DNA of 64,000 bases from Chiloscyllium plagiosum (lineage: Eukaryota). The notes under the pieces are model-generated. The model saw only the letters and a list, made by a program, of their open reading frames with translations, did not search any database and was not told where the DNA came from. The stretch is from NCBI RefSeq assembly GCF_004010195.1, contig NC_057718.1, positions 39,662,635 through 39,726,634 on the forward strand. The letters are read 5' to 3'. Made by a program: the position numbers and the translations under genes. Positions 1-64,000 of the stretch are shown here, piece after piece; the stretch's first letter is position 1; every line of letters starts with the position of its first letter.

Positions 1-63
1 TTTGTTTCCCACCTCACTGCAGCCGTGGAGAGAGACGTGCACTGGAAAAACTTGCCAAAGAAG
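1..63 (+). CDS. Creatine kinase-like gene, 3' part of the exon equivalent to CKB/CKM exon 4 (truncated by window start)
   Basis: From nt 3 reads CFPPHCSRGERRALEKLAKE, matching CK 'FCLPPHCSRGERRAIEKL'. Phase-1 GT donor at 64-65. Confidence 0.93.
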
Positions 64-466
64 GTGATTTATTTTGTTTGTTCATTATTGAAGAAATTAG
101 AAATAACAGAACATTTACCTAAATCTCCAACATTATCCATATTTGAATCCTGCCAATGATACCAGAGGTCACATGATATCAACTTTACAAATGACTTCTG
201 ATATGCCTGTGACAAAAGCAACCTTCTTTGTTTGTCTCAATGTATGCAGTCTTTGACAAGGTTGACCACAGCATTCTCCTTTGAGACCTCTCCCTGTTGT
301 CCAGTGCATGAGACCATTCCCCTTCCGCCTCCACCCTCATCTCCCTAACATCCCCTGACATTTCACTTGTCTCAGATTATCTGTTGTTTAAACCCTCATT
401 TGTGGCTTTTTAAAAGAAAATCTCTAGTGTGGACTATTCCAACGCATTCCTCTTGGTCTGCCACAT

Positions 467-605
467 TTAGATTACTTACAGTGTGGAAACAGGCCCTTCG
501 GCCCAACAAGTCCACACCGACCCGCCGAAGCGTAACCCACCCATACCCCTACATTTACCCCTTTACCTAACACTACGGGCAATTTAGCATGGCCAATTCA
601 CCTGA
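467..605 (-). mobile_element. HE1-type SINE, 3' fragment
   Basis: Reverse complement of the 3' half of the SINE at 60081-60403. Confidence 0.85.
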
Positions 606-795
606 CTTCTCATTCTCATTCAAGATCATCCAGCACTCTAATGCTTAACTCAATTAAGCTTCATTCACTTGTCCTACATTGACTCCTGGTAAAGCAGAAT
701 TTTAAAATTCTCTTGCTCATTTTTAAATCCTTCTCTGATTTTTGCTCTCCTTAATGCTATCATCTCCTACTATCCCCACAACCCTCCAAGGTATA

Positions 796-1258
796 GAGTC
801 ATTGCGTCTTACAGCACAGGAACAGACCCTTTGGTCTAACCAATCCATGCCAACCATAATCCCAAACTAAACTAGTGTCACCTGCCTGACCCTGGCCTAT
901 ATCCCTCCAAACATTTCTTGTTCATGTAACTGTACCCACATCCACCACTTCCTCTGGAAGTTCATTCCACACACAAACCACTGTCTGTGTAAAATAAATT
1001 GCCCATCATATCTTTGTAAAATCTTTCTCCTCTGACTTTAAAGATATGCTCTCTAATTTTGAAATCCCCCACAGGGAAAAAAAAACACCTGCCATTCACC
1101 TTATGACTTTATAAACCTAAACCGCCTATAGTCCAGTGAAAAAAAGTCCAAACCTATCCAGCCTCTCCTTATAACCCACACTTCCATTCTTGGCAACATC
1201 CTGGTAAATCTCTTCTGAACCCTCTCCAGCTTGATAATATCCTTCCTCTAACAGGGCT
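796..1258 (-). mobile_element. CR1/HER1-type LINE, 3' fragment
   Basis: Reverse-complement similarity to the 3' ends of the CR1 copies at 18293-19372 and 14080-15005. Confidence 0.8.
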
Positions 1259-1936
1259 GATATCTGTGCTCACATTTTGAGCATTACTGAGTTTAATCAT
1301 TCCACCATGGTTGACTGTGCTCTGGGCTCTGGAATTCCTTTTGTAAACATCTGATCTCTACTCATTGTCCTTTCCCTTTGACCAAGCCTTTGATCACCTG
1401 ACTGCATATATTCTTATGTCACGTCATTGTTTATGCCTTGATGCTCCTTTGCTGTGTTTTATTAAATTAAAGGTGCTATATAAATGCCATAAATCCCATT
1501 TCTCTGGCTCAATAATACGTTTGTTGCATATATATTGACATTAATGTCAACCCACCTTTTCAGCCATGGCATTACTCACATTACCAGTCAGTCTCAATTT
1601 TGCTCCCATCAAAGTTTTGTTTTATTTACTGATACCTTATGACTGGTCGCAAGGGATCAAGCAGGTAATATGAGCTCTGTTGTGAATATGAAACAACACA
1701 TCGACTTTTTGCATTGGATGCTTACAAAATTTCAAAACAACACACCCACTCTTACTTTTATATTTGGTGCATAAGTCAACAATGGTTTTTAGAGGGATTT
1801 TTTCAATGTTTTAAATGTTGATTCAGACACCAATGTCTACGGTATAATCTGGTGTTTCGTTTCAGCTTTAGCATTCGCTAAACTATTGAGTGAATTGAGT
1901 TTTATCACCATCTAGTGGTAATCTAGTGATACAACA

Positions 1937-2130
1937 TTAGGTAAAAACAATGACTGCAGATGCTGGAAACCAGATTCTGGATTAGTGGTGCTGGAAGAGC
2001 ACAGCAGTTCAGGCAGCATCCGAGGAGCAGTAAAAATTCCTGATGAAGGGCTTTTGCCCGAAACGTCGATCTTACTGCTCCTCGGATGCTGCCTGAACTG
2101 CTATGCTCTTCCAGCACCACTAATCCAGAA
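1937..2130. mobile_element. Short fold-back Penelope-derived element with hammerhead motif
   Basis: Inverted arms at about 1975-2032 and 2072-2130. TSD tagtgata(c/a)aaca at 1924-1936 and 2131-2143. Sequence matches the PLE terminal repeat at 53145-53265. Confidence 0.8.
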
Positions 2131-5100
2131 TAGTGATAAAACACTACAACTGTTGCTCTTGTCATCAGACAGAATAAGCAGCTATTGATGATCCATCAAC
2201 AGTCGCATCCGAAAATAACATTCTGCTTTATGCTATTTTTATCATCTTCCATTCAAAGAATATTTAGGATGCTAATGAAGCATTCACCCACACTTCTTTG
2301 TCTATTTGTCTGTCTATGATCCCATGTAACCATACAGTTTTAGATAAATGTAGACTACTGTACACATAATTTGATCATTGTTCATTTAAACTAAAAATTT
2401 CCAACATTTTTGCATTGCAATAGAGGAATACTTCTACAAAAAGAACAAAATGTGGAGCTTTTAAACAAGATGATACTCAGATAAAACCTCTTGCTTTAAG
2501 TTTATACCTCTCTAAACTCATCAGCTAATATTCCATAGAAATCTGTTTTTGGGCTGACATTGCGCTATGCTGAAATTTTCAATGTTTTATAATTTAATAA
2601 TTACCCCACCATTGAACCTAGCTCACATATCCCCACAATTTGTTCACTTCATTTGATATAATATAATTTAACTCATGAGTAATATTTGTTAAATTTGCAG
2701 TACATGAAATCCACTTAAATGCAAATACTTTGTTAGAATCCATACAACATCAGATTAATTTGAGATGATTCATTGCAACCATATTCTTGATTTGTCATGT
2801 ATGAAACTCCATCTTTACAAGTTCTATTTAAATGCATGAAAAGCCTCTTGGTAACATTCAGCCATAGTGATAATTTTCTTGTTTGTTACAAAGAGTCCTT
2901 TGGTCAAACAATGTCTGCCAATTGGAGATAAAATGTTCTATGATTCAATTTAAAACAAAAAGAAGAGAATTCTCTCTTTATCCCAGGAAGCATTCTTCCT
3001 CAACCAAAAAGACCAAACCTATGTGGAAGCTTCATGCAGACAATTTGACTGCCAAGTTGTATATATATCAACTGTGACTACAGAACTAACTGATTGGCTG
3101 TGGTTCATTTGATACGTGGTGATGTAAGGTGTTTTGTAATTATTAATTTACACTTTTCTTCCTCTGCTTATTCACTTTAGAGATTGAAATAGGTCATGGT
3201 CTTAAGATTGCTTGCCTCGATATTTTTGAATTGTAGCTTTCTTTTTACTCAACTTCCTCCTTGTTTCTCACACTAGCTGCCCATCCAACCTAATTACATT
3301 TCCTGATACCATTCAAGGAGCCCTATATGTTGTTTTGAACTTCAGGTCACACCCTAAGCCATATCTTTCTATTCCATTAATTGACCTTTCTCCACAATTA
3401 CTTGTCATCAACACTCACTTGTTACCAGGTCGTGAATGCTTCAATGTTTTGTGATTAATATGATTTCAATGGGTCTTCTTTGTTTCCTCAGAAAATGTCT
3501 CCAGAAACTGAGCCTCGATCGGCCACCTTACATCCTAAATCAGAGAAGGATTCAACCCTATTTGCCCTTTGTTTTATTTCAGGCCTTACCCCTCACCTTT
3601 GTCCATAAATAGGATCAATGTATGTGTTGAAACTATAATATAGAATCAGTTCATTTGCCTGACCCATTTAGGCTGGTGTTCGTTCCTTTCACAAGCAGTA
3701 ATCCTAATCCCTTATTGTCGACTTTGTCTCCATTTTTCCTTATCCTTCTTTTCTTCAATCTAGCAAATTACTAAGTGATCACTGCTTCAGTCAGTTATTC
3801 CACTTTCCACAGTTTCACAACCTTCTGTGTGGAAACATTTTGTGTGCTTTTTGTCCAATATCAGTCACATTTAAACATATATTTTTATTCTTCTCCATTA
3901 TAAATCCTACAATTACATAAAAATGTCTTCATAATTTTAAATATGTGATTTGCCCTGTTCTCTTAATAATATTGCCAATTTTAGAAGTCTTCTGTTGTAA
4001 TTGTACTTTCCTATATCTAGCAACATTCTGGTTACTCTGTGTTGCACCATTTCTATTATCCCAATATGCTTCCTATAGAAAGGAACCTAAAATGGGATAC
4101 TCTACTGTACCTGCGGTCTTACTACTGGTTTTATGCAGATTCACCACTACACCCTCAGATATGCCACTCTAAATGATGTTTCTAAAAAGATAATGTTGTT
4201 ACAGTCTGTTCCTACCTCACTCCATTACAAACTCACTTCACATATGCTTTCTGCTCAAACTGTCCAGAATATCTATCTGACAGTCCATCTTTTATGACAG
4301 AACACCAAATCAGACCAAGTAGATCTATGGGAAAACAGTGTATAGTAATGGATGGATGCCTGTATGAAAGGAGATAACTAAGCGTGAGGCCATTTCCATT
4401 GAAGAATGCAACAGTTGTTCAAGTGCATCAATAAACTTGCTATCTTTTAAATTCCTGATTGTGATATGGATATCTACTATTATTGCCATCAATTATGTAA
4501 ATGGCTGCTTTGAGTCAACTTTTATTGTTCTGCTGTGATGTTTTACAGTGCAGCCTTTCTTAATGTCATAACTTCTGATTTTGTCAAGAGATTGGCACCA
4601 CTAACAACTAACTAAGGTGCTGTCACTTAAGGATGTCTAATTTTAGCAGATTTCCCCCCAAAAATATTAATTACAAAATGCTATTTAAAATTGCATCTTT
4701 TATTATTCTTTTCCTGTTTTTATTTTTACTTTTAACACTTTGAAAAAAAAAATGTTGTGAGTGAACAGTTTTCATTTCCATACCACTGCTGATATTTTTG
4801 TCCACTGCTTTTGGTCTCTTTGTGATTTGCCCAAAGAGACCTCTGAAAATTTGTTTAAGAAAGGAACAACCTGGAAACTGGCCAGTTTCCCTGTCATGCA
4901 TAGAACGTACACTGACAGCTGAATAGTGGCAGCAAGCATTCCTACAACAAAGACTGGTATTTGCTGTGGCTGCTAAGTTAACATCAGCATTGTTGCACAC
5001 CATGGATTGAATGCAGTAGAGCTATAATAGACTCTTTGGTTTTCAACAACTAAGCAGTTAGTTTACACTTTTTGGTGACTTGGATTGAGGAGAATGACCT

Positions 5101-5479
5101 ATGGTGCATTTTGTATTGCATTGCTGATACGTTATATGGGCGTATCCTAAATTATGCTAATATATTTTAATCAAAATGATTACAATGTCGAGCTATGGAG
5201 TATAATATTTTCCCCAAAAGTAATTAGACATATTCAATTGCACAGATTGCAATTTAAAAAAAACTAAAGGAAGACTTGCATTTATATAGTGTCTTTCATA
5301 TTTGTCTTTTACAAGTATGGGCCAAACCAAGGCAGGTGTTACTGGTTTAGTTTGGGAACATGGTTGGCATGGATTAGTTGGACTGAAGAACTATACAGCA
5401 TCCAAACAGGCTCTATGATTCTGTAAATGCATTATAATCAACAAAGTGTTTTTGAAGTGTAATGTTGTAATATTAGAAC

Positions 5480-5720
5480 CACAAAAGCTATTTGCACACA
5501 GCACTCTCCCACAAACAGCAATGTAATAATGACCATATCATTTGTATTCTTCTAACTTTAAGGGATAAATATTGGCCAGAATACAGGGAATGCCCAGATG
5601 GACATGTAAATGGGACTTCAGTTTACTATCTCCTCTGAAAGATGCATTTCTACATGCACAGTATTCCGTCAGTACTGCACCTAATGGCAACCTTCATTTT
5701 TGTGCTGGTTTGGAAGTAAT
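5480..5720 (+). mobile_element. Ancient SINE fragment (DeuSINE/SacSINE-like)
   Basis: 'cccacaaacagcaatgtaataatgacc...gggataaatattggccag' resembles the Deu-domain core from memory; a weaker copy lies near 15775-15900. Confidence 0.45.
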
Positions 5721-5843
5721 TAAAAAAAAACTTTTTTGTAAAATGATGTTTTTATGAAGCTAAAAGCTCATCATCTATAGTCTATGCAGGTATTAACCAT
5801 AAGTGTTTTCATTTACTTTCTCTTGACAAATTATAAACTACAG

Positions 5844-6015
5844 CCCTCAGTGCATTAGATGGTGAATTTAAGGGAACGTATCATTCGCTGAAGAACTTAA
5901 GTGAGGAGAAACTTCAGAAACTGACTGCTGCTGGAATCCTTACTGATAACCTTATTTCTCCAATAATGCTTTCATCTGGTATGGCCAGAGATTGGCCAGA
6001 TTCTCGGGGAGTCTG
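5844..6015 (+). CDS. Creatine kinase-like gene, exon 5 equivalent (172 nt)
   Basis: cag acceptor 5841-5843, gtaag donor at 6016. Encodes ALSALDGEFKGTYHSLKNLSEEKLQKLTAAGILTDNLISPIMLSSGMARDWPDSRGVW (CK motif GMARDWPD.RG.W). Phases fit both neighbours. Confidence 0.95.
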
Positions 6016-7056
6016 GTAAGTTTTCATTTTAATCTAAAATGTTTATCAAGGGCAATGGAACTGCATATTGCAACCAAGAATGATAAATCCTGGGCTTGCT
6101 TTTTCCATGTTATTGACTTTCTGATCTTGGTTGTTCTGAGGCACTGGAATCTTATGCCAATCACAAGTGGACTTAGGCCACCTTGTTTCTCCTGCTGGAA
6201 ATCCAAAGTAGCATCAAGAGACTGCTGAGCATTTGGTGAGCAAAATAGTTGGTTACAAAATATCTATAGTCTGGAGATAGCTGTATCGCAAAAGAAAAAA
6301 GAATGGAATCAAATGGAGGTCCTGCCTCAGATTGGTTTCATCCATCCATGAGGGTGACTTTGGAGAAACTATGAGAAATTTGTTTGGCCATAGCAGGAGA
6401 GAATGGGGAACTTACATTTATTAAAAAAAACATTGACATAAGGCAGTTTGTACAAATTGGATCTTCCTGAGAATCTGAATAAATTTGCATGCATTTGTAA
6501 AAATGTTACATCTTCAAGAAATTTTTTTAAAATTATCTTCTTGTTTTTCAAATTCAACCTTATTGCTTTATGATACTTAACAAAGTAGGTGAAAATTTCT
6601 GACTTTCTCAAAACTTAGTTCTCTCAAAACAATAGTTGTGCATTAAATGAAAATTAAATGCTAAAAAGTTAAGATAGTCAGGTGCAGAGAAAGAGCTCAT
6701 GAACAGAATTTAATTGCCGCACCAGGGGTGGGTGGTGGGAAAGAGTTGGAAAACTGGTCAAATCCCCATTGTGGCCATTTTTAGGAAGTCCTAAGGGATT
6801 AAGTCCAAATCTGGCACATACCTGCTCATTGTCGGTCTTCCTGGTTTTCTGGGGGAAATTCCACCAATTCACAGACTTCCTGCTGCTGTGCAGAGAACTG
6901 TTGGCTGATTCAAGGTATTGCAACAGTATTGCAGAGCGACCTACATCAGAGATTGATGATGGAGCCCAAGAAAAAAGGTGGAGCAGTTCTATCAGGGCCT
7001 GCAAGAGGAATTGAATTTCAAAGAAATTTACGTGATCATAAATTTACCTTCTGCAG

Positions 7057-7180
7057 GCACAATGATATGATGAATTTTATTGTCTGGGTCAATAAAGAAG
7101 ACCATCTTCGCATTACTTCCATTCAAGATGGTGGAAATATGAACCAAGTGTTTACACGCTATTGTTTGGGTCTTAAAAAG
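7057..7180 (+). CDS. Creatine kinase-like gene, exon 6 equivalent (124 nt)
   Basis: ctgcag acceptor, gtatg donor. Encodes [41 protein letters not shown] (the CK NEEDHLR box, here NKEDHLR). Confidence 0.95.
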
Positions 7181-7839
7181 GTATGCAATTGCTTTCATTT
7201 TCTCATTACATTCATTTCAAAAAGACCAAATGAATGTAAAATTAAAGCGAAATACAGCAGATGCTGAAAAACTGAAATAAAATTGAATGTTCATAATTTG
7301 TCAACATTAGGATACAAGAAATTTCCTAAGATGTTTCCAACTTCATTTTTTCTATCTGGCAGAAATGTCTGCGAAGTCATAAGTTTATTCTGTGGAATGG
7401 TAAGGCAAATTTCATCAGTATACTCTTCTGCACTTTCCACGAATTGGCTAGATACTTTCTAGATGAAGCTTCAATATTCTCCATTTGGATCAGTGTGTGT
7501 GGCATCAAAAAGGCTAAAATTAAGAATGGTAATTCAGGGAAGATACAAATTAGTTACGTTGCTTTATTCCTTTCTTAGCATAGCGCTTAGCATATTGTTT
7601 GGTATTTCCCAGTAGAAAGCAAGGGAGACTCTTTGCCAGGCTGTAGTTTCTATTGAAAAGCAGCTAATGCGTGTGATGTTGGTAGAAGTTGGGAATCCAG
7701 TCTCACCAGAAAGGAAGGATTAGTGGTGAAAAGATTAGAAAACGACATTCCTTCAAAAATGACATGTATGAGAGTGCCTATATTTATGATGATGTACAGC
7801 TCGACTGCTATTACTTAGCTGGAATTAAGAGTTAGCCTG

Positions 7840-8834
7840 ATAGTGGGTTTGGAGAAGATTTGTAGCTCAGGTTGAAGTTCTGGATGTAGGTTTGCTCGCT
7901 GAGCTGGAAGGTTCATTTTCAGATGTTTTCGTCACCATCCTAGGTAATATCGTCAGTGAGCCTCTGGTAAAGCACTGCTGTCACGTCCTGCTTTTGATTT
8001 ATATGTTTGTTTCCTTGGGTTGGTGAAACAATCATCCCAACACCCACAAATGAAGCTGCATTAGAACATTATCTTAACGAGCCACCACAAACTGCAGCAC
8101 AGGGGAACGATGAGGAGCAGAGGAAAATCACCTATATAGCATATCGAAAAAGAATGGGTACCCAATGAACACAGTCTGTCGGTTTCTCAGCAACAAAACC
8201 AAACAAGCAGACAAACACGCCCAGAAACCCTAGACACTCTCCTCTACATCAAAGACATCTTGGAAATGACTGCCAGACTACTCAGACCTATTGGAATCAT
8301 GGTAGCCCACAAACCCACCAACACACTAAAACACCAGCTAATGAGCTTAAAAGACCCTATACAGACAAGCAAAATGAACATCATTTACAAAATACCTTGC
8401 AAGAACTGTAACAAACATTACATTGGACAAACAGACAGAAAACTAACCACCAGGATACATGAACATGAACTTGTCACAAAAAGACATCACTAGTATCCTT
8501 ACATACAGATGAGGAAGGACACCACTTTGACTGGGACAACCCGTCCATCCTAGGACAAGCCAAACAGAGACATGCACGAGAATTCCTAGATGCATGGCAT
8601 TCCAACCGGAGCTCTATCAACAAACACATTAATTTGGTTCACATCTACTACCCTCTGAGAAAAAGAACAGGAAATGACATCACCACAGGAAATGACATCA
8701 CTAACCTAAGGAAACCCAAGCACATAAACAGAAAGTAGGACATAACACCTGTGCTTCACTTGAGGCTCACTGATATGGTGACAAAACATCTGAAAACGAA
8801 CCTTCCACCTCAGTGAGCAAACTTACATCCAGAA
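7840..8834 (+). mobile_element. Penelope-like element (family A), 5'-truncated, with inverted terminal repeat
   Basis: GIY-YIG endonuclease remnant IIYKIPCKNCNKHYIGQT...RIHEH (ORF 8260-8493). About 7878-7977 is the inverted copy of 8750-8834. 8-bp TSD ttagcctg at 7832-7839 and 8835-8842. Confidence 0.88.
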
Positions 8835-8955
8835 TTAGCCTGGTATTTGAAGAGAAGACTGTTGTTGGAGAGTGTGTCTTTTTCTATTTGTTGATGACTA
8901 GCATTGAGCCATACACCTTTGGAAGTTGAAGAACTTACTCTTGTTCTTGATTTAG

Positions 8956-9145
8956 CTTGAAGAAATATACCAGCAGAAAAAACACCCCTTCATCTGGAAG
9001 GACAATTTAGGATATGTGTTAACCTGTCCTTCAGATCTTGGCACTGGTATGCGGGCAAGTGTCCTTGTTAGACTGAAGTACATCAGTAAACATCAGAAGT
9101 TCGGTGAGATCTTGCAGAGATTACGTCTAGAAAAGAAGCCTACTG
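8956..9145 (+). CDS. Creatine kinase-like gene, exon 7 equivalent (190 nt)
   Basis: tttag acceptor, gtact donor. Encodes LEEIYQQKKHPFIWKDNLGYVLTCPSDLGTGMRASVLVRLKYISKHQKFGEILQRLRLEKKPT; phosphagen-kinase signature CPSNLGT is present as CPSDLGT. Confidence 0.95.
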
Positions 9146-9737
9146 GTACTGTATTATAAGAAAACACTTCTCACTAATGTAAATAACCAATGAAATAGAA
9201 AAAAAGAAGTATGTGGTAACCAAAGTCTGAATAAACTGACAATAACAAACATATAATAACATCTAACACTTCTGCACCTCATGTGAAAAGCTCATGCTAC
9301 ATCATCATAACATACTAACTTCTGACTTGATTTTATTTCAAGAAAATGCACAGAAAGTTTTTACATTTCTGAGGCGGATATCTGATTTGAATATCTTTTT
9401 TGCTTGTTCAATATCCTAACATATATATTTGCATATTGGGCTTATCTATGCACATATTCAAAGCTGGGATATACATATTTTATTATCCAAGTAAATGGTT
9501 TTGTTTTTCCAGTATAGCAATTTTACTGAACTATATAATTTGGCAAATACTTTTATCTTTTAGAATCACCTGTTGGGAGACAGTTACATCAGTGTGATTA
9601 AGTCTTGCACCCATCCCCATAACTGTATTTCAATCTCTATCAGCATTCTTTCCTTGCAAAAACATTAACTAGTCCCTCAAAGTCACAAATAACATCCAGG
9701 AAATATATTTCCCATACCTCTCCAAGCTAAAATTTTC

Positions 9738-9925
9738 AGTCATAGAGATGTACAGCAAAGAAGCAGACCCTTCGGTCCAACTCGTCCATGCCGGCCAGAT
9801 ATCCCAACGTAATCTAGTCCCATTTGCTAGCACCTGGCCCATATCCCTCTAAACCCTTCCTATTCATATATCCATCCAGATGCCTTTTAAATAATGCAAT
9901 TGTACCAGCCTCCACCATTTCCTCA
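9738..9925 (-). mobile_element. CR1/HER1-type LINE 3' tail
   Basis: 'gtcatagagatgtacagc...agacccttcggtccaactcgtccatgc', the same tail as at 25939 and 62770. Confidence 0.8.
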
Positions 9926-11519
9926 TGCTCATGTTTGAATCAGTTCATGGCCAACTTCTATCTCTGTAACTTCTAAACCCAGAAATTTCATTTTGGTTCA
10001 ACTCTGGTGTTTTAAGACACCCCTATTGCCTTTGCCTCACCATTACTGCTTCTATCCTACCCTAAGTTCTGAACTGTGTTCACTAAACTGCCCTCCAACT
10101 TTAAATGTAACCACTCTTTAGTCGAGACTTTAGTCATCCCTTCATAATATTTTTTCCTCAATTTATAAAAACTTCTGTATTTCATTATAGTTGCATTTCA
10201 TCAGTTATACAAGGTGGCATCAGTTGCTTACAACTAGCCTACAGTCCACACTTCTAATATTTACCCCATCTTCAGCCATCAATGTCTTCCAGTGTCCACT
10301 GATGTGCCAGTCCTAAAGCAGGCCATTCCAACTGGGATATTAAACTATTAAAATTGCTTTCCAGACTCTGAGCCTAAATGTGATAGCTCCACTCCCACCA
10401 GACAGGTTGCTTTAAATTCTCCTAATCGGTTTCCATCCACATACCCACTTTGAATTCTGCTCTTGTACTTCAGGATTAAGCAACAACTCTGAGTGCTTTC
10501 ATGCTGCTCCCCAACAAATCTTAACTGTAATCCTGGGCATCAACTATGAACAGCACAGTACTTTTAAAGTGCTGAAATATTTACAATACATATTCCAGAA
10601 ATAGTATACTATAGGAATCTGAGCTCATTTCATTTTGGATTCATTATTGTTTATCTTTTGTTTCACAACAGTGCATTTTTTGGTCTGCTAAATTCTTAGA
10701 AACTCTTAAGTTCCTGTAATGAAACATAAGTTCATTGACCAATTCTTCTATTAGCTATTGATTTACAGCAAAAACTGATTAAATGATAACAGGGCTATAA
10801 TTTGCTGCAGTAAAACAACACATTTGATCACAACATTTATAGGCCATACATTGCTGGAAGTGCTAGCCAATAATGGCACTGAGGTAAATGAGGCAACTGG
10901 GACCAGAGTGAAAAGAGCAAGCAATTAGATTAAACTAATTAGATTGAAGAATTGTGAAATGAACACGATGAGGACTGCGAAGAAAGTTTGAATTAGAATG
11001 GGCAAACAACACCAAATCAGTACAGCAAGACCGCATTGAGAGAGAATGAAAGTACATAACGGCAAAGTAAAAAAAATTAAATACCCCAAAAAACAACACT
11101 GTACTTGTTGTAGTTATGACGGTGTCAGAGAGGTTCATTACCAGTAATTAACAATACATACTCTTTTAAAAACATTTTATAGACAGACAGAATTTTGATT
11201 GGCGTACTTTGTATCTACTGCATAAGTAAGGCAACTTAATCTAGATAAGTGTTGAGACAGTGAGATGTCATTTTCATTAACTTAATGGTGGAATGGAACA
11301 GGAACTTCTTAATTTTTGCATTAAAATGTACATCTGCTTCTCACCTGAAGTTGCTGTAAAATTTGGCATAATTTGAGTTCTATTAGCCTCATGATTTCTA
11401 ATTATTACACCAATATTTGCAGAATCCTTTTCAACATCCTGTTCACTTTTATAGACTATTACAATCACTGAAACTATAGTTATATTTATTAACTGATCCT
11501 GAATCACTGTATCCTGTAG

Positions 11520-11710
11520 GTGCTGTGAATGCTTCTGCTGAAGTCTGGGACATTTCCAATGCAGATCGAATTGGTTTCTCAGAAGTGGAATTGATGCAGT
11601 TGCTAGTTGATGGCATTAAGCTGCTGATCAACATGGATAAACATATTGAACAAGGGAGACCTATTGAAGATCTTTTTCCCACTCAGAAGCAGATGGACAT
11701 ACATGAATAA
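11520..11710 (+). CDS. Creatine kinase-like gene, last coding exon
   Basis: cctgtag acceptor. Encodes [63 protein letters not shown], similar to CKB/CKM 'FDVSNADRLGFSEVELVQ..VDGVKL..PAQK'. Confidence 0.95.
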
Positions 11711-11799
11711 TTATTTACAGCATAGAGATGGAAATTAATATTTCAGAGGAAGGATTCCTGCAAAAAATAACCTATTGATACAAATAAATATGCTTCTGA

Positions 11800-13389: not shown

Positions 13390-15005
13390 AAAGATGAATC
13401 TTGCAATCAAATTGTGCCTCTCCCATTTCCTGGATCTCTCAAAGTATTTTGCAACACAATTAATTATTTTTGATAACAAGGTTAGATCACATGGAATACA
13501 AACAGAACTAGCCATTTGGTTACAAAATTGGCTTGAAGACAGGAAATAGAGGGTGGTAATGGAGGATTGGTTTTTCAGACTGGAACCCTGTAACCAGTGG
13601 TGTGCCGCAAGGATCGGTGCTGGGTCCATTGCTTTTTGTCATTTCTATGGAGTCACAGTGCTGTACAGCATGAAACAGACCCTTTCGTGCAACTCGTCCA
13701 TGTTAACCAGATATCCTAAATTAATCTAGTCAAAGTTTGCCAGCATTTGGCCCATATCCCTCTAAACTGTTCCCATTCTTTTCCCCATCCAGATGCCTTT
13801 TAAAATGTTGTAATTGTACCAGCCTCCACCACATTCTCTAACAGCTCATTCCATACACGCACCACCCTTTGCATGAAAACCTTATGCCCTCTAAGTTTGG
13901 ACTCCCCCCACCGCAGGGAAAAGACCTTGTCTATTTACCCTATCCATGCCCCTCATGGTTTTATAAACTTCTATTATAAGGTCACCAGTCAGCCTCTGAC
14001 ACGCTTGGGAAAATACGCCCAGCCAATTTCAGCGTCTCTTTACAGCTCAACTCTCCAACCCTGGCAACATCCTTGTAAATCTATAAATGATGTGGATGTG
14101 AATAGAGGAGGTATGGGTATTAAGTTTGCAGATGACACCAAAATTGGTGGTGGAGTGGACAGCAAAGAAGATTTCCTCAGAGTACAGCGGGACCTTGATC
14201 AGATGGACAAATGGGCTGAGGAGTGGCAGATGGAGTTTAATTTAGATAGAGGTGAGGTGCTGCATTTTGACAGGACAAATCAGAGCAGGAACTGTACACT
14301 AAGTGGTAAGGTCCTGGGCAGTGTTACCAAACAAAGAGACACTGAGGTGCAGGTTCATAGTTCCATGAAAGCAGAATTACAGGGAGACAAGGTAGTGAAG
14401 GCAGTGTTTAGCACGCTTTCCTTTATTGGTCAGTACATTGTGTATGGGAGTTTGGAGGTCATGTTGCAGCTGTACAGGACATTGATTACGCCACTTTTGG
14501 AATACTGTATGCAATTCTGGTCTCCCTACTATAGGAGAGATTTTGCAAAACTTGAAAGGGTTCAGAAAAGATTTACAAGGATGTTGCCAGGGTTGGAGGG
14601 TTTGAGCTGTAGTGAGAGTCTGAATAGGCTGGTGCTGTTTTCCTGGAGTATCGGAAGTTGAGGGGTGACCTTATAGAGGTTTATAAAATCACAAGGGGCA
14701 TGGATAGGGTGAATAGTCAAGGTCTTTTCCCCAGAGTAGCAAAGTCCACATCTAGAGGGCACAGATTCAAGGTGAGAGGGAAAGATTGAAAAGGGATCTA
14801 AGGGGCAACCTTTTCACAGAGAGTGGAGCATTTATGGAAACAGCTGCCAGAGGTGATGGTGGTGGAGGAGGCTGGTACAATTAAAATAATTTAGAGGGAT
14901 ATGGGCCAAATGCTGGCAAAGGGGACTAGATTAGTTTAGGATATCTGGTTGGCATTGACAAATTAGATTGAGGGGCCTGTTTTTGTGCTGTACATCTTTA
15001 TGATC
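13390..15005 (+). mobile_element. CR1-type LINE 3' part (RT domain), interrupted by an inverted CR1 3' fragment at about 13648-14080
   Basis: RT motifs GVPQGSVLGP, KFADDTKIGG and LEYCMQFWSP. The RT sequence breaks at about 13647 and resumes at about 14081. Confidence 0.88.
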
Positions 15006-33179: not shown

Positions 33180-33534
33180 TTACAACTTTAGCTCATTTGC
33201 AATTTTGGATGCAATGTTCTTGAATGCTATAGATGTTCCAGATATTCGCTTAAAGCGAACACCATTTAGAGACAAACGTGGCAGCTTGCAGACCTCCATT
33301 TCCCATTGAACCAAGTTGTCCTGCCGAGCATCTCCATGAACGCAGAACAAAAGGAACCTTTCTCTTTGCTCATAGTCACAGTTGTTAGCGTCCAGCACCT
33401 TTCGAATCTCTCGCATCATATCATTGGGATCCATTGAACTGGTTGTCTTCATGCTCCATGTGAACCTCAAAGATCTTGGTTTTGCATCTTTGTTGTCATC
33501 CCTTTCTCTGTCCTTTGCTTCTCCTGCCATATTT
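33180..33534 (-). CDS. MARK1: MAP/microtubule affinity-regulating kinase 1, last coding exon (KA1 domain)
   Basis: tttcag acceptor. Encodes ...[104 protein letters not shown] and HGDARQD fit MARK1 better than MARK3 (DPGD, HGDGHAE). Confidence 0.93.
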
Positions 33535-37156: not shown

Positions 37157-37201
37157 CTTGCAGTGTCAGCTCTGCCACTGCCTTCAACTTCACTTAGGCC
37201 C
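37157..37201 (-). CDS. MARK1: MARK1 45-nt symmetric (phase 2-2) microexon
   Basis: ttttgag acceptor, gtgagg donor. Encodes (R)GLSEVEGSGRADTA(R), alignable to mammalian MARK1 'DPSEGEASGRTDTSR'. Confidence 0.85.
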
Positions 37202-45028: not shown

Positions 45029-45289
45029 CTGCGGGCAAATTTGGACGTGATCTTGCTTATTATACCAGTGGAAGTTCCTCTTCGAGCTTGTGAGAGGGCA
45101 CCAGTATCATGTGACAACGTTGGTGAAGCTGGTGGTCCATTGTACGTGGCAGTTCGTCGTTCTCGTAACTGCCCACCGTGAAAAGTGCTTCGGCTGGAGC
45201 TTCCTCGAGGGAAGTGGGTTCGATCTGGAGTGGTAGTGCTAATACTGTGTGCAGAAGGAGAAGCAGCAGGGACCCTTTGGGCTGCAGTG
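45029..45289 (-). CDS. MARK1: MARK1 spacer-domain exon (261 nt)
   Basis: actcag acceptor, gtaag donor. Encodes [38 protein letters not shown]...[18 protein letters not shown], including the RSTFH aPKC-site motif of MARK kinases. Confidence 0.94.
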
Positions 45290-46108
45290 CTGAGTACAGA
45301 AACAAAAGTCGACACATAAATTGTAATTCATTATGAATTCCTAAAAGCTGCTCTCTCGGTTTCTGCAATGTGAGAAGAGTATATTGTTCAGGGTGTAGAT
45401 TTTAAACACATTCTTCAAGGTAAGGCAAAAAATGAGTACAACTTTGTTTTGATTAAATCTATGCAAACAGACAAATTTACAATGGAACCTAATAAGTGCA
45501 TGATATAGGGATTGTTGCTCAACTGAATTAAATAAAATTAAATTTCTTTCTATAATTAAAATACAAGAGTACAGAAAAGTAAAGCCTTAGTTGCATTAAC
45601 ATCAAGTGAGCTGAATTGAGGCAATAAATTTGTGTTTTTAACCTATTCTCAGTTCATCCCTTCCCACAACAAAAACATACTTATCTATGCACAAATATCT
45701 AGTCGCTTTCACTCAGATCATGTGCACAAATTGGAGAGATTTGCACAATTTCCCCCCAGTGAGAACAGCAAACTTTAGATGCTCCATAGCAGGAACTTTA
45801 TAAATGTACCAAATGTTTTGAAAAAAAATCTTCAGTTCAAATAAAATGTACTCCCAGCTGTAAATGTGAGTCTGGATCTGAATTTTCTTCATCAGTATAA
45901 TACCAATGAAGATTTTTGTTTTACATATTGCTTTCCACTTAACCTCAATTTGGAGGGCAAGAGACTTTAAGAATAAATGGTCTATGTTGTAAATCTCTGG
46001 TAAAGTAAAAGATGAAACAATGTGGGAGTGGAAGAATTGTGTCAGACAGGATTTTTCATCAGGACTTGGAAATTCTGAACTTCACACTCCATACTTGTAA
46101 ATACTTAC

Positions 46109-46285
46109 CTGGGCCGGTAACTTTCACTGCTGTCTTCAATGGAAGGGAGCGTGACCTTGATTGGATGCCCAGAGGCTGACATGGATTTCTGGTGTCGAGG
46201 TCGTGCTGATGGTACTCCAGATGACACTGCAGGGCTTGCGACAGATGTGGAAGTACTGCTTGCACAAGCAGACATTTCAGTTAGG
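46109..46285 (-). CDS. MARK1: MARK1 spacer-domain exon (177 nt)
   Basis: cataag acceptor, gtaagt donor. Encodes LTEMSACASSTSTSVASPAVSSGVPSARPRHQKSMSASGHPIKVTLPSIEDSSESYRP (MARK1 'ARPRHQKSMSTSGHPIKVTLP'). Confidence 0.92.
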
Positions 46286-49015
46286 CTTATGGGTCGAGGC
46301 AAAGAGAAAGATAGAAGCCAAAATGTAACACAAAATACCTGATCAAACAAAGTGGCTCTTTGTAATCAGGGCTCTTCACGTAATGTTTGGGTTTCACATA
46401 ATTGACATGACTACAATAATGGGCAGTGTGGTGCTGGAAAAGCACCGCATCGGAGGAGCGGGAAAATCGATGTTTCAGGCGAAAGCCCTTCATCAGGAAT
46501 GAGTCAGGGAGCCTCGGGGGTGGAAAAATAAATGGGAGGGGGTGGGGCTAGGGGAAGGTAGCGGAAAGTGCAATAGGTGGATGGAGGTGGGGTAAAGGTG
46601 ATAGGTTGCAGGAAGTGTGGAGTGGATAGGTGGGAAGCAAGATGGACAGGCAGGACAGGTCATGAGGCCGGTGCTAAGCTGGAAGGTTGGAACTGGGATA
46701 AGGTGGGGGAGGGGAAATAAGGAAACCTATGAAATCCACATTGATGCCATGGGGTTGGAGGGTCCTGAGGGGGAAAATGAGGCATTCTTCCTCCAGGCAT
46801 CGTGTGGTAAGGGAGTTCCGATGGAGGTGGCCCTGGACCTGCATGTCCTTGGTACAGTGGGAGGGGAAGTTGAAGTGTTTGATCACAGGGTGGTGGGACT
46901 GGTTGGTGCAGGTGTCCTGGAGATGTTCTCTAAAGCACTCTGCGAGTAGGCGCCCTGTCTCCCCAGTGTAGAGGAGACCACATCGGGAGCAACGTATGTA
47001 GTAAATGACATGTGTGGAAGTGCAGGTGAAACCTTGGAGGGCGTGAAAGGCTCCTTTGGGGCCTTGGACGGAGGTGAGAGGGGAAGGTGTGGGTGCAAGC
47101 TTTGCAATTCCTGCATTGGCAGGGGAAGGTGGGTTTTTGGGGGTTGTGGTCCTGACGAGGTAGTCATGAAGGGAATGATCTTTAAGGAAAGCAGATAGGG
47201 GTGAAGAGGGAAATATCTCTCTGGTGGTGGGGTCTGTTTGTAGATGGTGGAAATGGCAGAGGATGATGTGATGTATACAGAAAATGAGCACTAGGGGGGT
47301 TCTGTCCTTGTTGCAGTTGGAGGGGTGGAGTTCAAGGGTGGAGGTTTGGGAAGTGGAGGAGATGCGCTGGAGGGCATCATCAAATCCACCAACTTCCACA
47401 GCTACCTGAATTACACCTTCTCCCACCCTGCCTCCTGTAAAAATGCTAACACTAATTCCCAATTCCTTCACCTCCGCTGCATCTGCTCCCAGGAGGACCA
47501 ATTCCACAACAGAACACACCAGATGGCCTCCTCCTTTAAAGATTGCAATTTCCCCAGAAGATGTCAGTGTTGATTTGGTCATTGTTGATGGAGATGGAGC
47601 AGTCCAAGAAGGGCAGGGAGGTGTCTGAGATAGTCCAATTGAATTTAAGGTCGGGGTGGAATGTTGTTGGTGAAGTTGATGAACTATTCAACCTCCTCGT
47701 GGGGGCACTCAGTGGTGCTGATGCAGTCATCAATGTAGCGGAGGAAAAGGTGGGGAATGGTGCCCGTGTAACTGCGGAAGGTACACAGTTCCACGTCCCC
47801 GACAAAGAGACAGGCATAGCTGAGGCCCATACGGATGCCCATGGCCACCCCTTTTATTTGGAGGAAGTGGAAGGATTCAAAAGAGAAATTAATGAGGGTG
47901 AGGACAAGTTCAGCCAAACGAATTAAGAGTGTTAGTGGAAGGGTACTGGTGGGGATGTTAGGACAGGAAGAAACGGAGGGCTTGGAGGCCCTGGTCATGG
48001 CGGATGGCGGTGTACAGGGACTGGGATGTCCATGGTGAAGATGAGGCATTGGGGGCCAAGGAAATAAAGATCTTGGAGGAGGTAGAGGGTGTGGGTGGTG
48101 CTCCGAACGTATGTGGGGAGTTCCTGGACCGGAGGGATAGGACAGTATCGAGGTATTTGGAGATGAATTCGGTGAGTCAGGAGCAGGTTGAGATGAAGGG
48201 TCGGTCAGGGTAACCAGTCTTGTGGATATTGGGTAGGAGGTAGAACCAGGCAGAGCGGGGTTCCCGAACTTTCCATCAAGACTCTCGCCCACCTTCCGAG
48301 GACTCCTTCGCCTGCCTCCAACACACCACATCCACCTGATACCCTGTGCCGGTCTGTTACCCGCCCGCGACCTCTTTATTTCCAACTGCCGCCGTGATAT
48401 TGACCGCCTCAACCTGTCCACCCTACTCACCCACTCCAATCTCTCATCCTCTCAATGCGCAGCCCTCCACTCCCTCTGCTCCAATCCCAACCTCATCATC
48501 ACAAAGGGGGGGGTGCAGTGGTCGTTTGGCGCACTAACCTCTACACCACTGAAGCCAGGCGTGAACTTGAAGACAACTCCACCTACCGCCCCCTCGACCA
48601 CAACCTCACCTCCCATAACCAAACCATCTCCTAGACCGTACACAACCTCATCACCACAGGGGATCTCTCACCCACAGCTTCCAACCTCACAGTTCGGGAA
48701 CCGTGCATCGCCTGATTCTACCTCCTGCCCAAGATTTTTAGGCCTGTCTATACCAGCCAACCCATCGTCTCAGCCTGCTCTTGTCTCACCAAATTCATTT
48801 CCACCTACCTTGATACTGTGCTATCCCCCCGGTCCAGGAACGCTCCACATACGTTTGGGACACCACCCACACCCTCCACCTCCTCCAAGACTTTTGTTTC
48901 CCTGGCCCCCAACACCACACCTTCACCATGGACATCCAATTCTTAAAAACGTCCATCCGCCATGACAAGAGCCTCCAAGCCCTCCATTTCTTCCTCTCCC
49001 AAAGTCCCACCAGTC

Positions 49016-51717
49016 CTCACTCTCAGCGGAGCAGGTAAGGGCTGTTTGGCAGTGGCTGCTTGAAGGCTCGGTGACGTTTGTTTAACGGTTTAAATTTGAT
49101 AGTTTTTTTTTTAATAAAAGCGTGGAGCGGACCCGGAAGCTGGTGTAGCGCAAGCTTACCTGGGTAGGTTTTTTTCCCTATAAAAGCGCGCAGGAGAGTA
49201 GAACAGGGACAGGATTGGCTGTTGCAGGTTCCAGGGTTTAAATGTTTTAGTAGAATCAGAGGTGGGGGTAAAAGAGGGGGAGGTGTGGCATTGCTTGTCA
49301 AAGATAGGATTACAGCGGTGGAAAGGACGATGGACGAAGACTCGCCATCTGAGGTAGTTTGGGCTGAGGTTAGGAATAAGAAAGGTGAGGTCACCCTGTT
49401 AGGAGTTTTCTACAGGCCTCCTAATAGTCCTAGAGACGTATAAGAAAGGATTGCGGGGATGATTCAGGAGAAGAGTGAAAGTAATAGGGTGGTTGTTATG
49501 GGGGACTTTAACTTTCCAGATATTGACTGTGAAAGCTATAGCTTGAGTTCGTTAGATGGGTTGGCGTTTGTTCAATGTGTGCAGGAGGGTTTCCTGACAC
49601 AATATGTAGACAGGCCAACAAGAGGTGAGGCCATACTGGATTTGGTTCTGGGTAACGAACCAGGCCAGGTGTTAGAATTGGAGGTAGGTGAGCACTTTGG
49701 GGACAGTGACCACAATTCGGTGACTTTTACTCTAGTGATGGAGAGGGATAAGTGTGCACTGCAGGGCAAGAGTTACAGCTGGGGGCAGGGAAATTATGAT
49801 GCGGTGAGGCACGACTTAGGATGCGTGGCTTGGAAAAGTAGACTTCAAGGTAAGGGCGCAATTGATATGTGGAGCTTGTTCAAGGAGCAACTATTGAGTG
49901 TCCTTGATAAGTATGTACCTGTCAGGCAGGGAGGAAAGGGTCGTGTGAGCGAGCCCTGGTTTAATAAGGAATTGGAATCCCTTGTTAAAGGGAAGAGGGC
50001 GGCCTATGTAAAGATGAGGCGCGAAGGTTCAATTGGGGCGATTGAAAGTTATAAGGTAGCCAGGAAGGATCTGAAGAGAGAGCTAAGAGCAGCAAGGAGG
50101 GGACATGAAAAGTCCTTAGTTGGTAGGATTAGGGAAAACCCAAAGGCTTTCTATAGGTATGTCAGGAATAAAAGAATGACTAAGGTAGGAATAGGTCCAG
50201 TCAAGGATAGTAGTGGGAAGTTGCATGTGGAGGCTGAAGAGATTGGGGAGACACTGAATGAATACTTTTCATCAGTATTCAATCAGGAACAGGACATTAT
50301 TGTCAATGTGAATACTGAGTCACAATTAAGTAGAATGAATGGCTTTGAGGTATGTAGAGAAGAGGTGTCGGAAATTCTGGAAAGGGTGAAAATAGAAAAG
50401 TCCCCTGGGCCTGATGGCATTTACCCTAGGATTCTCTGGGAAGCAAGGGAGGAGATTGCAGAACCATTGGCCTTGATTTTTATGTCCTCATTGTCNNNNN
50501 NNNNNNNNNNNNNNNNNNNNNNNNNNNNNNNNNNNNNNNNNNNNNNNNNNNNNNNNNNNNNNNNNNNNNNNNNNNNNNNNNNNNNNNNNNNNNNNNNNNN
50601 NNNNNNNNNNNNNNNNNNNNNNNNNNNNNNNNNNNNNNNNNNNNNNNNNNNNNNNNNNNNNNNNNNNNNNNNNNNNNNNNNNNNNNNNNNNNNNNNNNNN
50701 NNNNNNNNNNNNNNNNNNNNNNNNNNNNNNNNNNNNNNNNNNNNNNNNNNNNNNNNNNNNNNNNNNNNNNNNNNNNNNNNNNNNNNNNNNNNNNNNNNNN
50801 NNNNNNNNNNNNNNNNNNNNNNNNNNNNNNNNNNNNNNNNNNNNNNNNNNNNNNNNNNNNNNNNNNNNNNNNNNNNNNNNNNNNNNNNNNNNNNNNNNNN
50901 NNNNNNNNNNNNNNNNNNNNNNNNNNNNNNNNNNNNNNNNNNNNNNNNNNNNNNNNNNNNNNNNNNNNNNNNNNNNNNNNNNNNNNNNNNNNNNNNNNNN
51001 NNNNNNNNNNNNNNNNNNNNNNNNNNNNNNNNNNNNNNNNNNNNNNNNNNNNNNNNNNNNNNNNNNNNNNNNNNNNNNNNNNNNNNNNNNNNNNNNNNNN
51101 NNNNNNNNNNGACCCAAAGGCACAGCCTTAGACTAAAGGGAAGACCTTTTAGAATGGAGATAAGGAGAAATGTTGCAGTTGTAAAGGACTCTGGTGCGGC
51201 CGCATCTGGAATATTGTGTGCAGTTTTGGTCGCCATACTATAGGAAGGATGTGGTGGCACTGGAACGGGTGCAGAGGAGGTTTACCAGGATGTTGCCTGG
51301 TATGGTAGGAAGATCGTATGAGGAAAGGTTGAGGCACTTGGGGTTGTTTTCATTGGAGAAAAGAAGGTTTGGGGTGACTTGATAGAGGTGTACAAGGTGA
51401 TTAGGGGTTTAGATAGGGTTGACCATGAGAGCCTTTTTCCACGTATGGAGTCAGCTATTACGAGGGGGCATAGCTTTAAATTAAGGGGTGGTAGGTATAG
51501 GACAGATGTTAGGGGTAGATTCTTTACTCAGCGAGTCGTGAGTTCATGGAAAGCCCTGCCAGTAGCAGTGGTGGACTCTCCCTCTTTATGGGCATTTAAA
51601 CGGGCATTGGATAGGCATATGGAGGATAGTGGGCTAGTGTCGGTTAGGTGGGCTTGGATCGGTGCAACATCGAGGGCCAAAGGGCCTGTACTGTGTTGTA
51701 TTTGTCTATGTTCTATG
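49016..51717 (+). mobile_element. Young CR1 LINE inserted into the PLE RT (spans the assembly gap)
   Basis: Endonuclease motifs RGGGVALLV, YRPPN, MGDFN, LDLVL and SDHN, and KSPGPDG, nearly open from 49222 to 50495 (one stop at 49441). 3' RT end and (ttctatg)-type tail at about 51700-51717. Confidence 0.9.
50496..51110. other. Assembly gap (615 N)
   Basis: Run of n characters. Confidence 1.
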
Positions 51718-63333: not shown

Positions 63334-63805
63334 CATGGCGGCCCTTTCTAAATTACATAGACATGGATCTGTCAGCAGTACTGATTATGGCCTTTATATA
63401 GCCACAAGAGATATATATGGTGGCCCGAGGACCCGGGGGAGGCCTAGTAAAGATGGATATAATCACAGTTGCTCCTGTGGATGGGAGCCTTGATGGAGGC
63501 GCAGCGAGTGGAGTACTGTAATATAGTACATCGTAGTGTAATTTAGTTTTAGTGGATTGTAATTTAATTTAATGTTATTTTATTTAATTTGAGTTTAAGC
63601 TAATTTGGTTTAAGTAAATATGAGACGATTGTATCTTGAATAGTAGGCAGTTTATTCTCAGCATTACTGTAATATAATATAATAGTACAATATTATTTCT
63701 ACTTTTCTGTACTTCTATAACTGTATGGCTTTTTTCAATAAATGTATATATTAAAATAAGAAATAAAATACACAGACATTTGGCAATAATACTATGGATT
63801 CTCAC

Positions 63806-63903
63806 CTGCTGTCTTTACCATTCTGCATGGCAGAGTATCGATCACTGGTCGAGCGTTCACACACATAGGTGTTCCTCCTTGTCATACTAGGGAGCATGTT
63901 ATT
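63806..63903 (-). CDS. MARK1: MARK1 spacer-domain exon (98 nt); the gene continues beyond the window
   Basis: tttcag acceptor, gtgag donor. Encodes NNMLPSMTRRNTYVCERSTSDRYSAMQNGKDS (MARK RRNTYVC motif). Phase 2 end matches the 46285 exon. Confidence 0.92.
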
Positions 63904-64000
63904 CTGAAATGTTAAATCAATTTATGTCAGTTATCTATGTTTTGTAATAAAACTACTAATTATTTTCGAAACAAAATAATTATATCTTTTGAGTTTCAGA

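Follow-up and report, generated by a model that had tools for sequence, protein, structure and literature searches.

A probable non-catalytic creatine kinase paralogue beside MARK1 in a shark genome, with orthologues from chimaeras to teleosts

The stretch of Chiloscyllium plagiosum DNA analysed here (64,000 nucleotides, nt; NCBI RefSeq assembly GCF_004010195.1, contig NC_057718.1; C9:39662635-39726634, called the window) was found to carry the 3′ half of a creatine kinase (CK)-like gene that converges on MARK1. The textbook CK family contains two cytosolic and two mitochondrial isoforms, and the locus raises the question of what a further CK-like gene is doing beside MARK1 and whether its product is a kinase at all. 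An earlier note on the same DNA had proposed a third cytosolic CK ohnologue, kept in cartilaginous fish and lost in mammals. More probably, the gene encodes a pseudoenzyme ohnologue which has kept the predicted dimer surface; it would pair with active CKB or CKM, or form dimers of its own, and would hold the active enzyme in place or tune it through an N-terminal extension. The labels C9, C10, C40, C41 and C45 denote contigs of the same shark assembly, and residues are numbered as in CKB throughout.

The CK-like gene lies on the plus strand and was found to contain nine coding exons of 16, 47, 199, 155, 133, 172, 124, 190 and 191 nt, with AG and GT at all exon ends and fitting phases, and to encode a product of 408 amino acids (aa) with no internal stop. 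The four upstream coding exons are present in the adjoining assembly stretches. The earlier note had described intact CK-family exons of 172, 124 and 190 nt with canonical splice sites and with the sizes of CKB and CKM, and this was borne out: the sizes 155, 133, 172, 124 and 190 nt gave a single AG..GT fit each at the matching exons of both CKB and CKM of this genome, and the exons of its mitochondrial-type CKMT differ from them. The protein was identical at 402 of 408 positions to the Chiloscyllium punctatum protein 'creatine kinase M-type-like' and 55-56% identical to CKB and CKM. The PF02807 and PF00217 domains were found above their cut-offs (85 and 181 bits, respectively, in P0005, a database orthologue of 98.5% identity). 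The monomer model had a pLDDT of 71.5, and its top Foldseek matches were cytosolic CKs, with TM 0.70-0.72 by query.

A 1505-nt contig from one public sequencing run was found to contain the four whole exons of the window back to back, together with exons 1 and 2 (two alignments, matched by length and depth). The joint of exons 1 and 2, with GT..AG, was present in four of four public runs from three studies. The public records give no library type, and the simplest source of contigs that lack introns and have GT..AG joints is mRNA. The gene is spliced and intact at the transcript level. One single-cell run, of which 2% of the reads were taken, gave zero depth on the CK-like exons, and a further run yielded no alignment, which has no bearing on tissue either way.

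The phosphate pocket of CK is formed by R130, R132, R236, R292 and R320, with R96 and R135 in support and with D54-R148 stabilising the dimer, as stated in PMC12387690; H66, I69, V72, H191, E232, C283, H296, V325 and D326 are given as functional residues in bioRxiv 10.64898/2026.08.04.742861. The residue survey contained 23 cartilaginous, 103 ray-finned and 26 canonical sequences, counted as sequences with isoforms and partials included and not as species. The protein of this shark was found to contain the changes H66Y, I69T, R96Y, R130Q, R132S, H191G, E231K, N286D, H296L, R320K and D326N, together with a two-residue loop deletion, and to retain R135, E232, D233, R236, C283, S285, R292, D335 and R341. 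These losses were already visible in the exons within the window, where the earlier note had passed over them.

All five phosphate arginines were present in 26/26 canonical CKs and in 0/126 orthologues, the cartilaginous sequences keeping one to three and the ray-finned sequences none to two. The gene of this shark keeps two of the five (R236 and R292) and contains K at 320. The residues R96, E231 and R320 were each kept in none of the 126 orthologues, and H191 in 0/23 cartilaginous and about 1% of the 103 ray-finned sequences. R130 was kept in 8/23 cartilaginous and 0/103 ray-finned sequences, and R132 in 0/23 and 16/103, respectively. C283 was conserved in 22/22 cartilaginous sequences, including this gene, and was replaced by Ser in 103/103 ray-finned sequences. 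The residue E231 is important for CK activity; it was Lys in 23/23 cartilaginous sequences and was never Glu among the 103 ray-finned ones. The ray-finned sequences further contained Glu at 130 (99/103) and Asp or Glu at 320 (81/103), and lacked the 320s loop (102/103). Among sharks and rays, positions 130 (Q, R, S or C), 320 and 323-326 were highly variable, as expected of unconstrained sites. The residues N230 and R135 were invariant in all 126 orthologues, and 15 clade-specific residues were found to be fixed.

Judged by its residues, the CK-like protein does not qualify as an active CK, whether in the five arginines, in R96 and H191 or in the closing loops (H66/I69 and V325/D326), and the gene shows the pattern of a pseudoenzyme, being transcribed, intact and conserved without the catalytic residues. 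The ray-finned proteins almost certainly have little or no kinase activity, and the same is likely for those of sharks.

The predicted dimer surface was largely kept. Near-invariant blocks were present in the orthologues at E19-P21, G50, D54, H145-R152 and R209-R215, with D54 kept in 123/124 and R148 in 126/126. A heterodimer model of P0005 (residues 24-402) with the CKB of Stegostoma, run with three controls, gave a score of 0.82, the best control reaching 0.00, with at least 70% of the contacts shared between runs and a partner pLDDT of at least 86. The mark applied to such models was reached by 51/78 solved pairs and 2/108 mismatched pairs. The near-invariant blocks sit at the modelled interface. 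Since CK dimers are already solved and close cousins pass, the model shows likeness and not binding. Among sites conserved in canonical CKs, those conserved in at least 90% of the sequences of each fish group were 14/20 in the predicted interface, 1/16 in the active site and 64/218 elsewhere (Fisher p 1.3e-4 for interface against active site and 6.5e-4 for interface against the rest). In the cartilaginous fish alone, 17/20 canonical interface sites were kept. Dimerisation through the ancestral interface is likely.

The N-terminal extension of about 23 residues is encoded by two extra coding exons and is specific to the CK-like clade. Its motif was matched in 87/126 orthologues, some of which are truncated, and in 0/26 canonical CKs. 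The extension was of low confidence in the monomer model (pLDDT about 45-55), and a search of the ESM Atlas returned only CK clusters, with nothing above 0.9 for the extension. A targeting role may be put forward for it only tentatively.

A search with the 190-nt exon returned 13 proteins of 75-100% identity, of which 12 were named and belonged to sharks, rays and a chimaera, and one was unnamed, in a cluster that contains skates. The profile of these 13 led to an unnamed protein of a sturgeon cluster which shares the N-terminal extension, and a search with that protein led to zebrafish zgc:172076 and to orthologues in bichir, paddlefish, gar, bowfin and many teleosts. On sequence, the CK-like gene is the shark orthologue of zgc:172076, an existing database gene whose entries contain no functional description beyond the CK name. 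Because zgc:172076 orthologues are widespread in ray-finned fish, from bichir, sturgeon and gar to teleosts, the wording 'kept in cartilaginous fish' was too narrow. The suspicion that the gene is hidden under generic names proved right, the entries being called 'creatine kinase M-type-like', 'B-type' or 'testis isozyme'. Among the best 150 of 6271 representatives, five were clearly in the CK-like clade, all of them fish-like. No orthologue of a lobe-finned fish or tetrapod was named among the 13 hits, among the 120 of 2348 and 120 of 725 hits listed, or among the 150 of 6271 representatives, which is an absence from these lists and not proof of loss, since such a copy could sit below the listed matches or inside a 50% cluster. 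Megalops (P0128/P0130) and Albula (P0145/P0175) were each found to contain two CK-like copies, probably retained from the teleost genome duplication. Two 'M-type' CKs of the tongue sole were considered as the CK-like gene and rejected, being described in PMC10014616 as ordinary, active CKM with 85% identity to human M-CK. In the open-access main texts of PubMed Central and bioRxiv, no paper was found that deals with the CK-like gene, with a CK linked to MARK1 or with a fish CK pseudoenzyme; subscription journals or supplements, such as earlier work on the evolution of CK or tables of genes, may mention it.

The CK-like orthologues of cartilaginous and ray-finned fish formed a single clade (100/100) which falls within the vertebrate cytosolic CKs (99/97 and 100/97), apart from CKMT and the invertebrate CKs. 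The CKM clade (100/99) did not contain the CK-like gene, which was also separate from the CKB of sharks and chimaera. One clade of cartilaginous and ray-finned sequences means that the gene is neither a recent duplicate nor the CKB of the species. The duplication is placed after the split from invertebrates and before that of cartilaginous and bony fish, in trees that contained no lamprey, hagfish or amphioxus sequence. The CK-like branch was long (0.5 substitutions per site), and shark-chimaera identity was 70% for the CK-like protein against 88.5% for CKB. A grouping of the CK-like gene with teleost alternative-exon CKB isoforms, seen at a weak node of a 47-row tree from a quick search, was rejected, as it was gone once the first CK exon had been removed.

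Five CK loci were found in the shark genome by each of two exon searches: the CK-like gene on C9, one locus each on C10 and C41, and two tandem mitochondrial-type copies on C40. The C10 locus is CKB (95% to the CKB of Stegostoma) and converges on MARK3, about 56 kb away, in a tail-to-tail arrangement, and the C41 locus is CKM (94.5% to the CKM of Stegostoma) and lies tail-to-tail with a divergent MARK4-like gene at about 26 kb. The earlier note had asked that separate CKB-MARK3 and CKM-MARK4 loci be confirmed, and both are present, the identity of MARK4 being assigned by inference. Four MARK last exons were found in the genome, on C9, on C10 (90%, with the MARK3-type HGDGHAEN), on C45 (85%) and on C41 (58%); from their divergence and neighbours, the MARK genes of C45 and C41 are taken to be MARK2 and MARK4, and no CK match was found on C45. 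TRAF5 (C9:39.61-39.64 Mb), on the same strand as the CK-like gene, ends about 6 kb upstream of it. Of 15 matches to TRAF5, its two nearest paralogues lie on C10 (70%, 1.3 Mb from CKB) and on C41 (66%, 0.35 Mb from CKM). The order of genes is TRAF5, CK-like gene and MARK1 on C9, TRAF, MARK3 and CKB on C10, and CKM, MARK4-like gene and TRAF on C41, with CK and MARK convergent in each. Whole-genome duplication would be expected to leave such a set of three paralogous MARK-CK-TRAF blocks, and an origin of the CK-like gene by whole-genome duplication is very likely, as the third cytosolic CK ohnologue besides those of the CKB-MARK3-TRAF3-like and CKM-MARK4-like-TRAF blocks. The proposal of a third cytosolic CK thus stands for a paralogue with its own MARK1-TRAF5 block, yet probably not for the enzyme that it implied, the active site being degenerate in every orthologue examined.

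After the duplication, one CK copy would have lost phosphotransfer while selection retained its fold and its dimer surface; the dead subunit would then pair with an active cytosolic CK, or with itself, and the N-terminal extension would position or damp the working enzyme. The chances that the partner is an active CK, rather than only the protein itself, are about even. A longer history may be offered with somewhat less confidence, in which an ancestral third CK of jawed vertebrates became a dedicated dead subunit more than 400 million years ago, heterodimerises in fishes with CKB or CKM, anchors or throttles the phosphocreatine shuttle of a specific cell type through its extension, and was lost in lobe-finned vertebrates.

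Several observations weigh against the pseudoenzyme reading or parts of it. The shark sequences retain E232, D233, R236, C283, S285, mostly R292, H296, D335 and R341, so residual or altered chemistry may persist there. The loss in the active site relative to the rest of the protein was marginal (p 0.04-0.10), owing to the rapid evolution of the protein as a whole. The Fisher comparison was not made blind, as motif conservation was known before the interface list was taken from the model, and interface residues may be retained for folding. The complex tool passes 10/12 close cousins of true partners and cannot say which family member binds. The ray-finned sequences contain interface changes, with F51 kept in 8%, Q58 in 3%, D62 in 0% and K177 in 7%, which may mean homodimer specificity instead of pairing with CKB or CKM. 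As to descent, CKB was not recovered as one clade, the approximately unbiased (AU) tests rejected no topology (CKB+CKM p 0.34, CKlike+CKM 0.24, CKlike+CKB 0.39), and the linkage of the CK-like gene to MARK1 was examined in this shark genome only.

The fixed ray-finned substitutions at F51, Q58, D62 and K177 suit self-pairing, and the same residue pattern would be left by a dead CK that acts alone, as a homodimer with a structural or scaffold role, and binds no active CK; degenerate phosphagen-kinase domains are found as parts of long proteins in other eukaryotes. The interface sites kept in the cartilaginous fish, however, make an exclusion of CKB and CKM not evident, and in MB heterodimers cytosolic subunits pair across about the divergence that separates CKB from CKM. 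Such a solitary scaffold is held to be unlikely.

A slow CK, an enzyme for another guanidino substrate or a sensor that binds nucleotide or creatine without turnover, at least in cartilaginous fish, would account for the residues kept there (E232 and R236 in 23/23, C283 in 22/22, R292 in 18/22 and H296 in 19/22), for the invariance of N230 and R135 and for a fold retained at TM about 0.7 to CK structures. Against this stand the loss of R132, R320, R96, H191 and E231 from all 23 cartilaginous sequences, the free variation of sharks and rays at 130, 320 and 323-326, and the acidic residues, Ser 283 and loop deletion of the ray-finned sequences, and an altered enzyme or ligand sensor appears quite improbable.

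The descent of the gene from a small-scale CKB duplicate of the jawed-vertebrate stem, moved beside MARK1 later, would agree with the survival of the CKlike+CKB topology in the AU test and with the resemblance, at a small number of positions (Leu at 14 and Arg before AT), of the N-terminal CK exon to the Ba-type exon of CKB. This exon signal is weak: against the Ba-type CKB, Bb-type CKB and CKM exons, the first CK exon gave a mean BLOSUM of 2.51, 2.32 and 2.29 and an identity of 0.486, 0.467 and 0.485, respectively, with P0129 left out of the comparison. It would also be explained if the pre-duplication gene had contained both alternative exons. At each of the three loci a CK lies tail-to-tail with one of the MARK paralogues, TRAF3/5-type paralogues are present on all three contigs, and the same layout three times makes a chance landing beside another MARK unlikely, so that a small-scale origin is given very little weight. 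An intact Ba-type CKB exon is found in isoforms of birds and teleosts; in the CKB of this shark (C10:39666105-39665920), a decayed Ba-type alternative first coding exon with a broken frame follows closely after the normal one.

A pseudogene in decay or a copy of CKB or CKM produced by mis-assembly, to which the many substitutions at conserved sites and the long branch might have pointed, is refuted by the conservation of full-length orthologues with their fixed residues across cartilaginous and ray-finned fish, as well as by the intact frame and splice sites, the spliced transcripts and the separate CKB and CKM loci.

The pseudoenzyme reading may be set beside known systems. The CK-like protein shares with cytosolic CKB and CKM (PF02807 and PF00217; PDB 3b6r, 1qh4, 1u6r and 1vrp) the two-domain fold, the exon sizes, the tail-to-tail MARK and the predicted dimer interface, and differs from them in the degenerate phosphate-arginine pocket, R96, H191, E231 and both specificity loops, in the extra N-terminal residues, in its faster evolution and in not being seen in lobe-finned fish or tetrapods among the matches listed. 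Zebrafish zgc:172076 and its fish orthologues belong to the same clade and contain the same extension and the same fixed substitutions as the shark gene, whereas the ray-finned copies are further degenerate (C283S, R130E and the loop deletion). Dead paralogues that regulate an active twin in a heterodimer are described for trypanosome prozyme with AdoMetDC (PMC5201418) and for FLIP(L) with caspase-8 (PMC7586951). Prozyme and FLIP(L) resemble the CK-like protein as duplicates that retain fold and interface and lose catalytic residues, and differ in their unrelated folds and in that regulation was shown there and would be expected by analogy here. A degenerate CK of marine metagenomes (P0367 cluster; P0411-P0415) has also lost most active-site residues, but it groups with the CK domains of a tunicate (Styela). 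Its union with the fish clade was rejected (AU p 0.018, four rows being left out of the tree), which makes its active-site loss an independent one. Long unnamed eukaryotic proteins (P0334, P0321, P0292 and others) were found to contain several degenerate phosphagen-kinase domains.

Table 1. Coding features of the CK-like gene and of MARK1 in the window (positions counted from the first nucleotide of the window).
Feature	Position	Strand	Remarks
CK-like coding exon 5, 3′ part	1..63	+	133 nt in total, starts at C9:39662565, 70 bases before the window; PPHCSRGERR dimer-interface motif; R130Q and R132S in the upstream part
CK-like coding exon 6	5844..6015	+	172 nt; H191 to Gly; ARDWPD interface motif retained
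CK-like coding exon 7	7057..7180	+	124 nt; NEED to NKED (E231K); E232, D233 and R236 retained
CK-like coding exon 8	8956..9145	+	190 nt; C283, S285 and R292 retained; N286D, H296L, R320K
CK-like last coding exon	11520..11710	+	191 nt including TAA; D326N; 320s loop shortened by two residues; AATAAA at 11783, 11800 and 11964
MARK1 last coding exon	33180..33534	-	KA1 domain, HGDARQD
MARK1 45-nt exon, candidate	37157..37201	-	In phase
Open frame with MARK1 exon	45029..45327	-	Exon ends at 45029; start not fixed
Open frame with MARK1 exon	46108..46365	-	ARPRHQKSMS; exact ends not fixed
Open frame with further MARK1 exon	63805..63921	-	TRRNTY; MARK1 continues past the window

The convergent neighbour on the minus strand had been named MARK1 from its diagnostic residues, and the name is upheld by the presence of HGDARQD and ARPRHQKSMS, by the PDB matches of its last exon, led by MARK1 (3ose, 231.7 bits) with MARK3 (1ul7, 196.3 bits) scoring lower, and by RAB3GAP2, which lies head-to-head beyond it at C9:40.08 Mb, an arrangement also found in human. 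Its stop at 33180 is about 21.5 kb from that of the CK-like gene. For the 45-nt exon, also cited as MARK1-type, an in-phase candidate exists at 37201-37157, but it is one of three 45-nt candidates that passed the filter and was chosen by its resemblance to the human MARK1 exon. An assembly gap of 615 bases was found in a MARK1 intron (window 50496-51110). C1orf115/RDD1, a MARK1 neighbour in human, was found at C9:48384596-48391102, 8.7 Mb from MARK1. The Pfam scan upstream of the CK-like gene covered 150/390 unmasked frames.

The intron before the 190-nt exon (window 7830-8830) was found to contain a GIY-YIG-like endonuclease motif in a broken frame, a retroelement fragment of Penelope-like type, and fragments of a LINE reverse transcriptase were found downstream of the CK-like gene (window 13800-14800). 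The TRAF3/5-type gene near CKM and the MARK4-like gene (C41:6708908-6709363, 66% to the TRAF5 MATH exon) is possibly an extra ohnologue without a mammalian counterpart. In the tandem mitochondrial-type pair (C40:16.13-16.21 Mb), one exon translates identically in both copies, and the upstream copy is altered around H191 and in both the 60s and the 320s loops, which may reflect a second CK copy in the course of divergence, gene conversion or an assembly artefact. The CK exon searches of the genome returned no CKMT locus besides this pair.

Numerous database records of fish listed as 'creatine kinase M-type', 'B-type' or 'testis isozyme' belong to the CK-like gene and could be mistaken for the CK of muscle, brain or testis when expression is studied. 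The single named zebrafish orthologue makes knockout, localisation and biochemistry straightforward. The gene represents a fifth vertebrate CK lineage, present from chimaeras to teleosts, in which the active site was dismantled, and it completes the MARK-CK paralogon. If the history proposed for it is true, it would be a regulatory pseudo-subunit of a kind not described before for any vertebrate phosphagen kinase, which isozyme surveys stained for activity would miss. It suggests that energy buffering in fish cells is subject to a further, non-catalytic level of control that has gone unrecognised.

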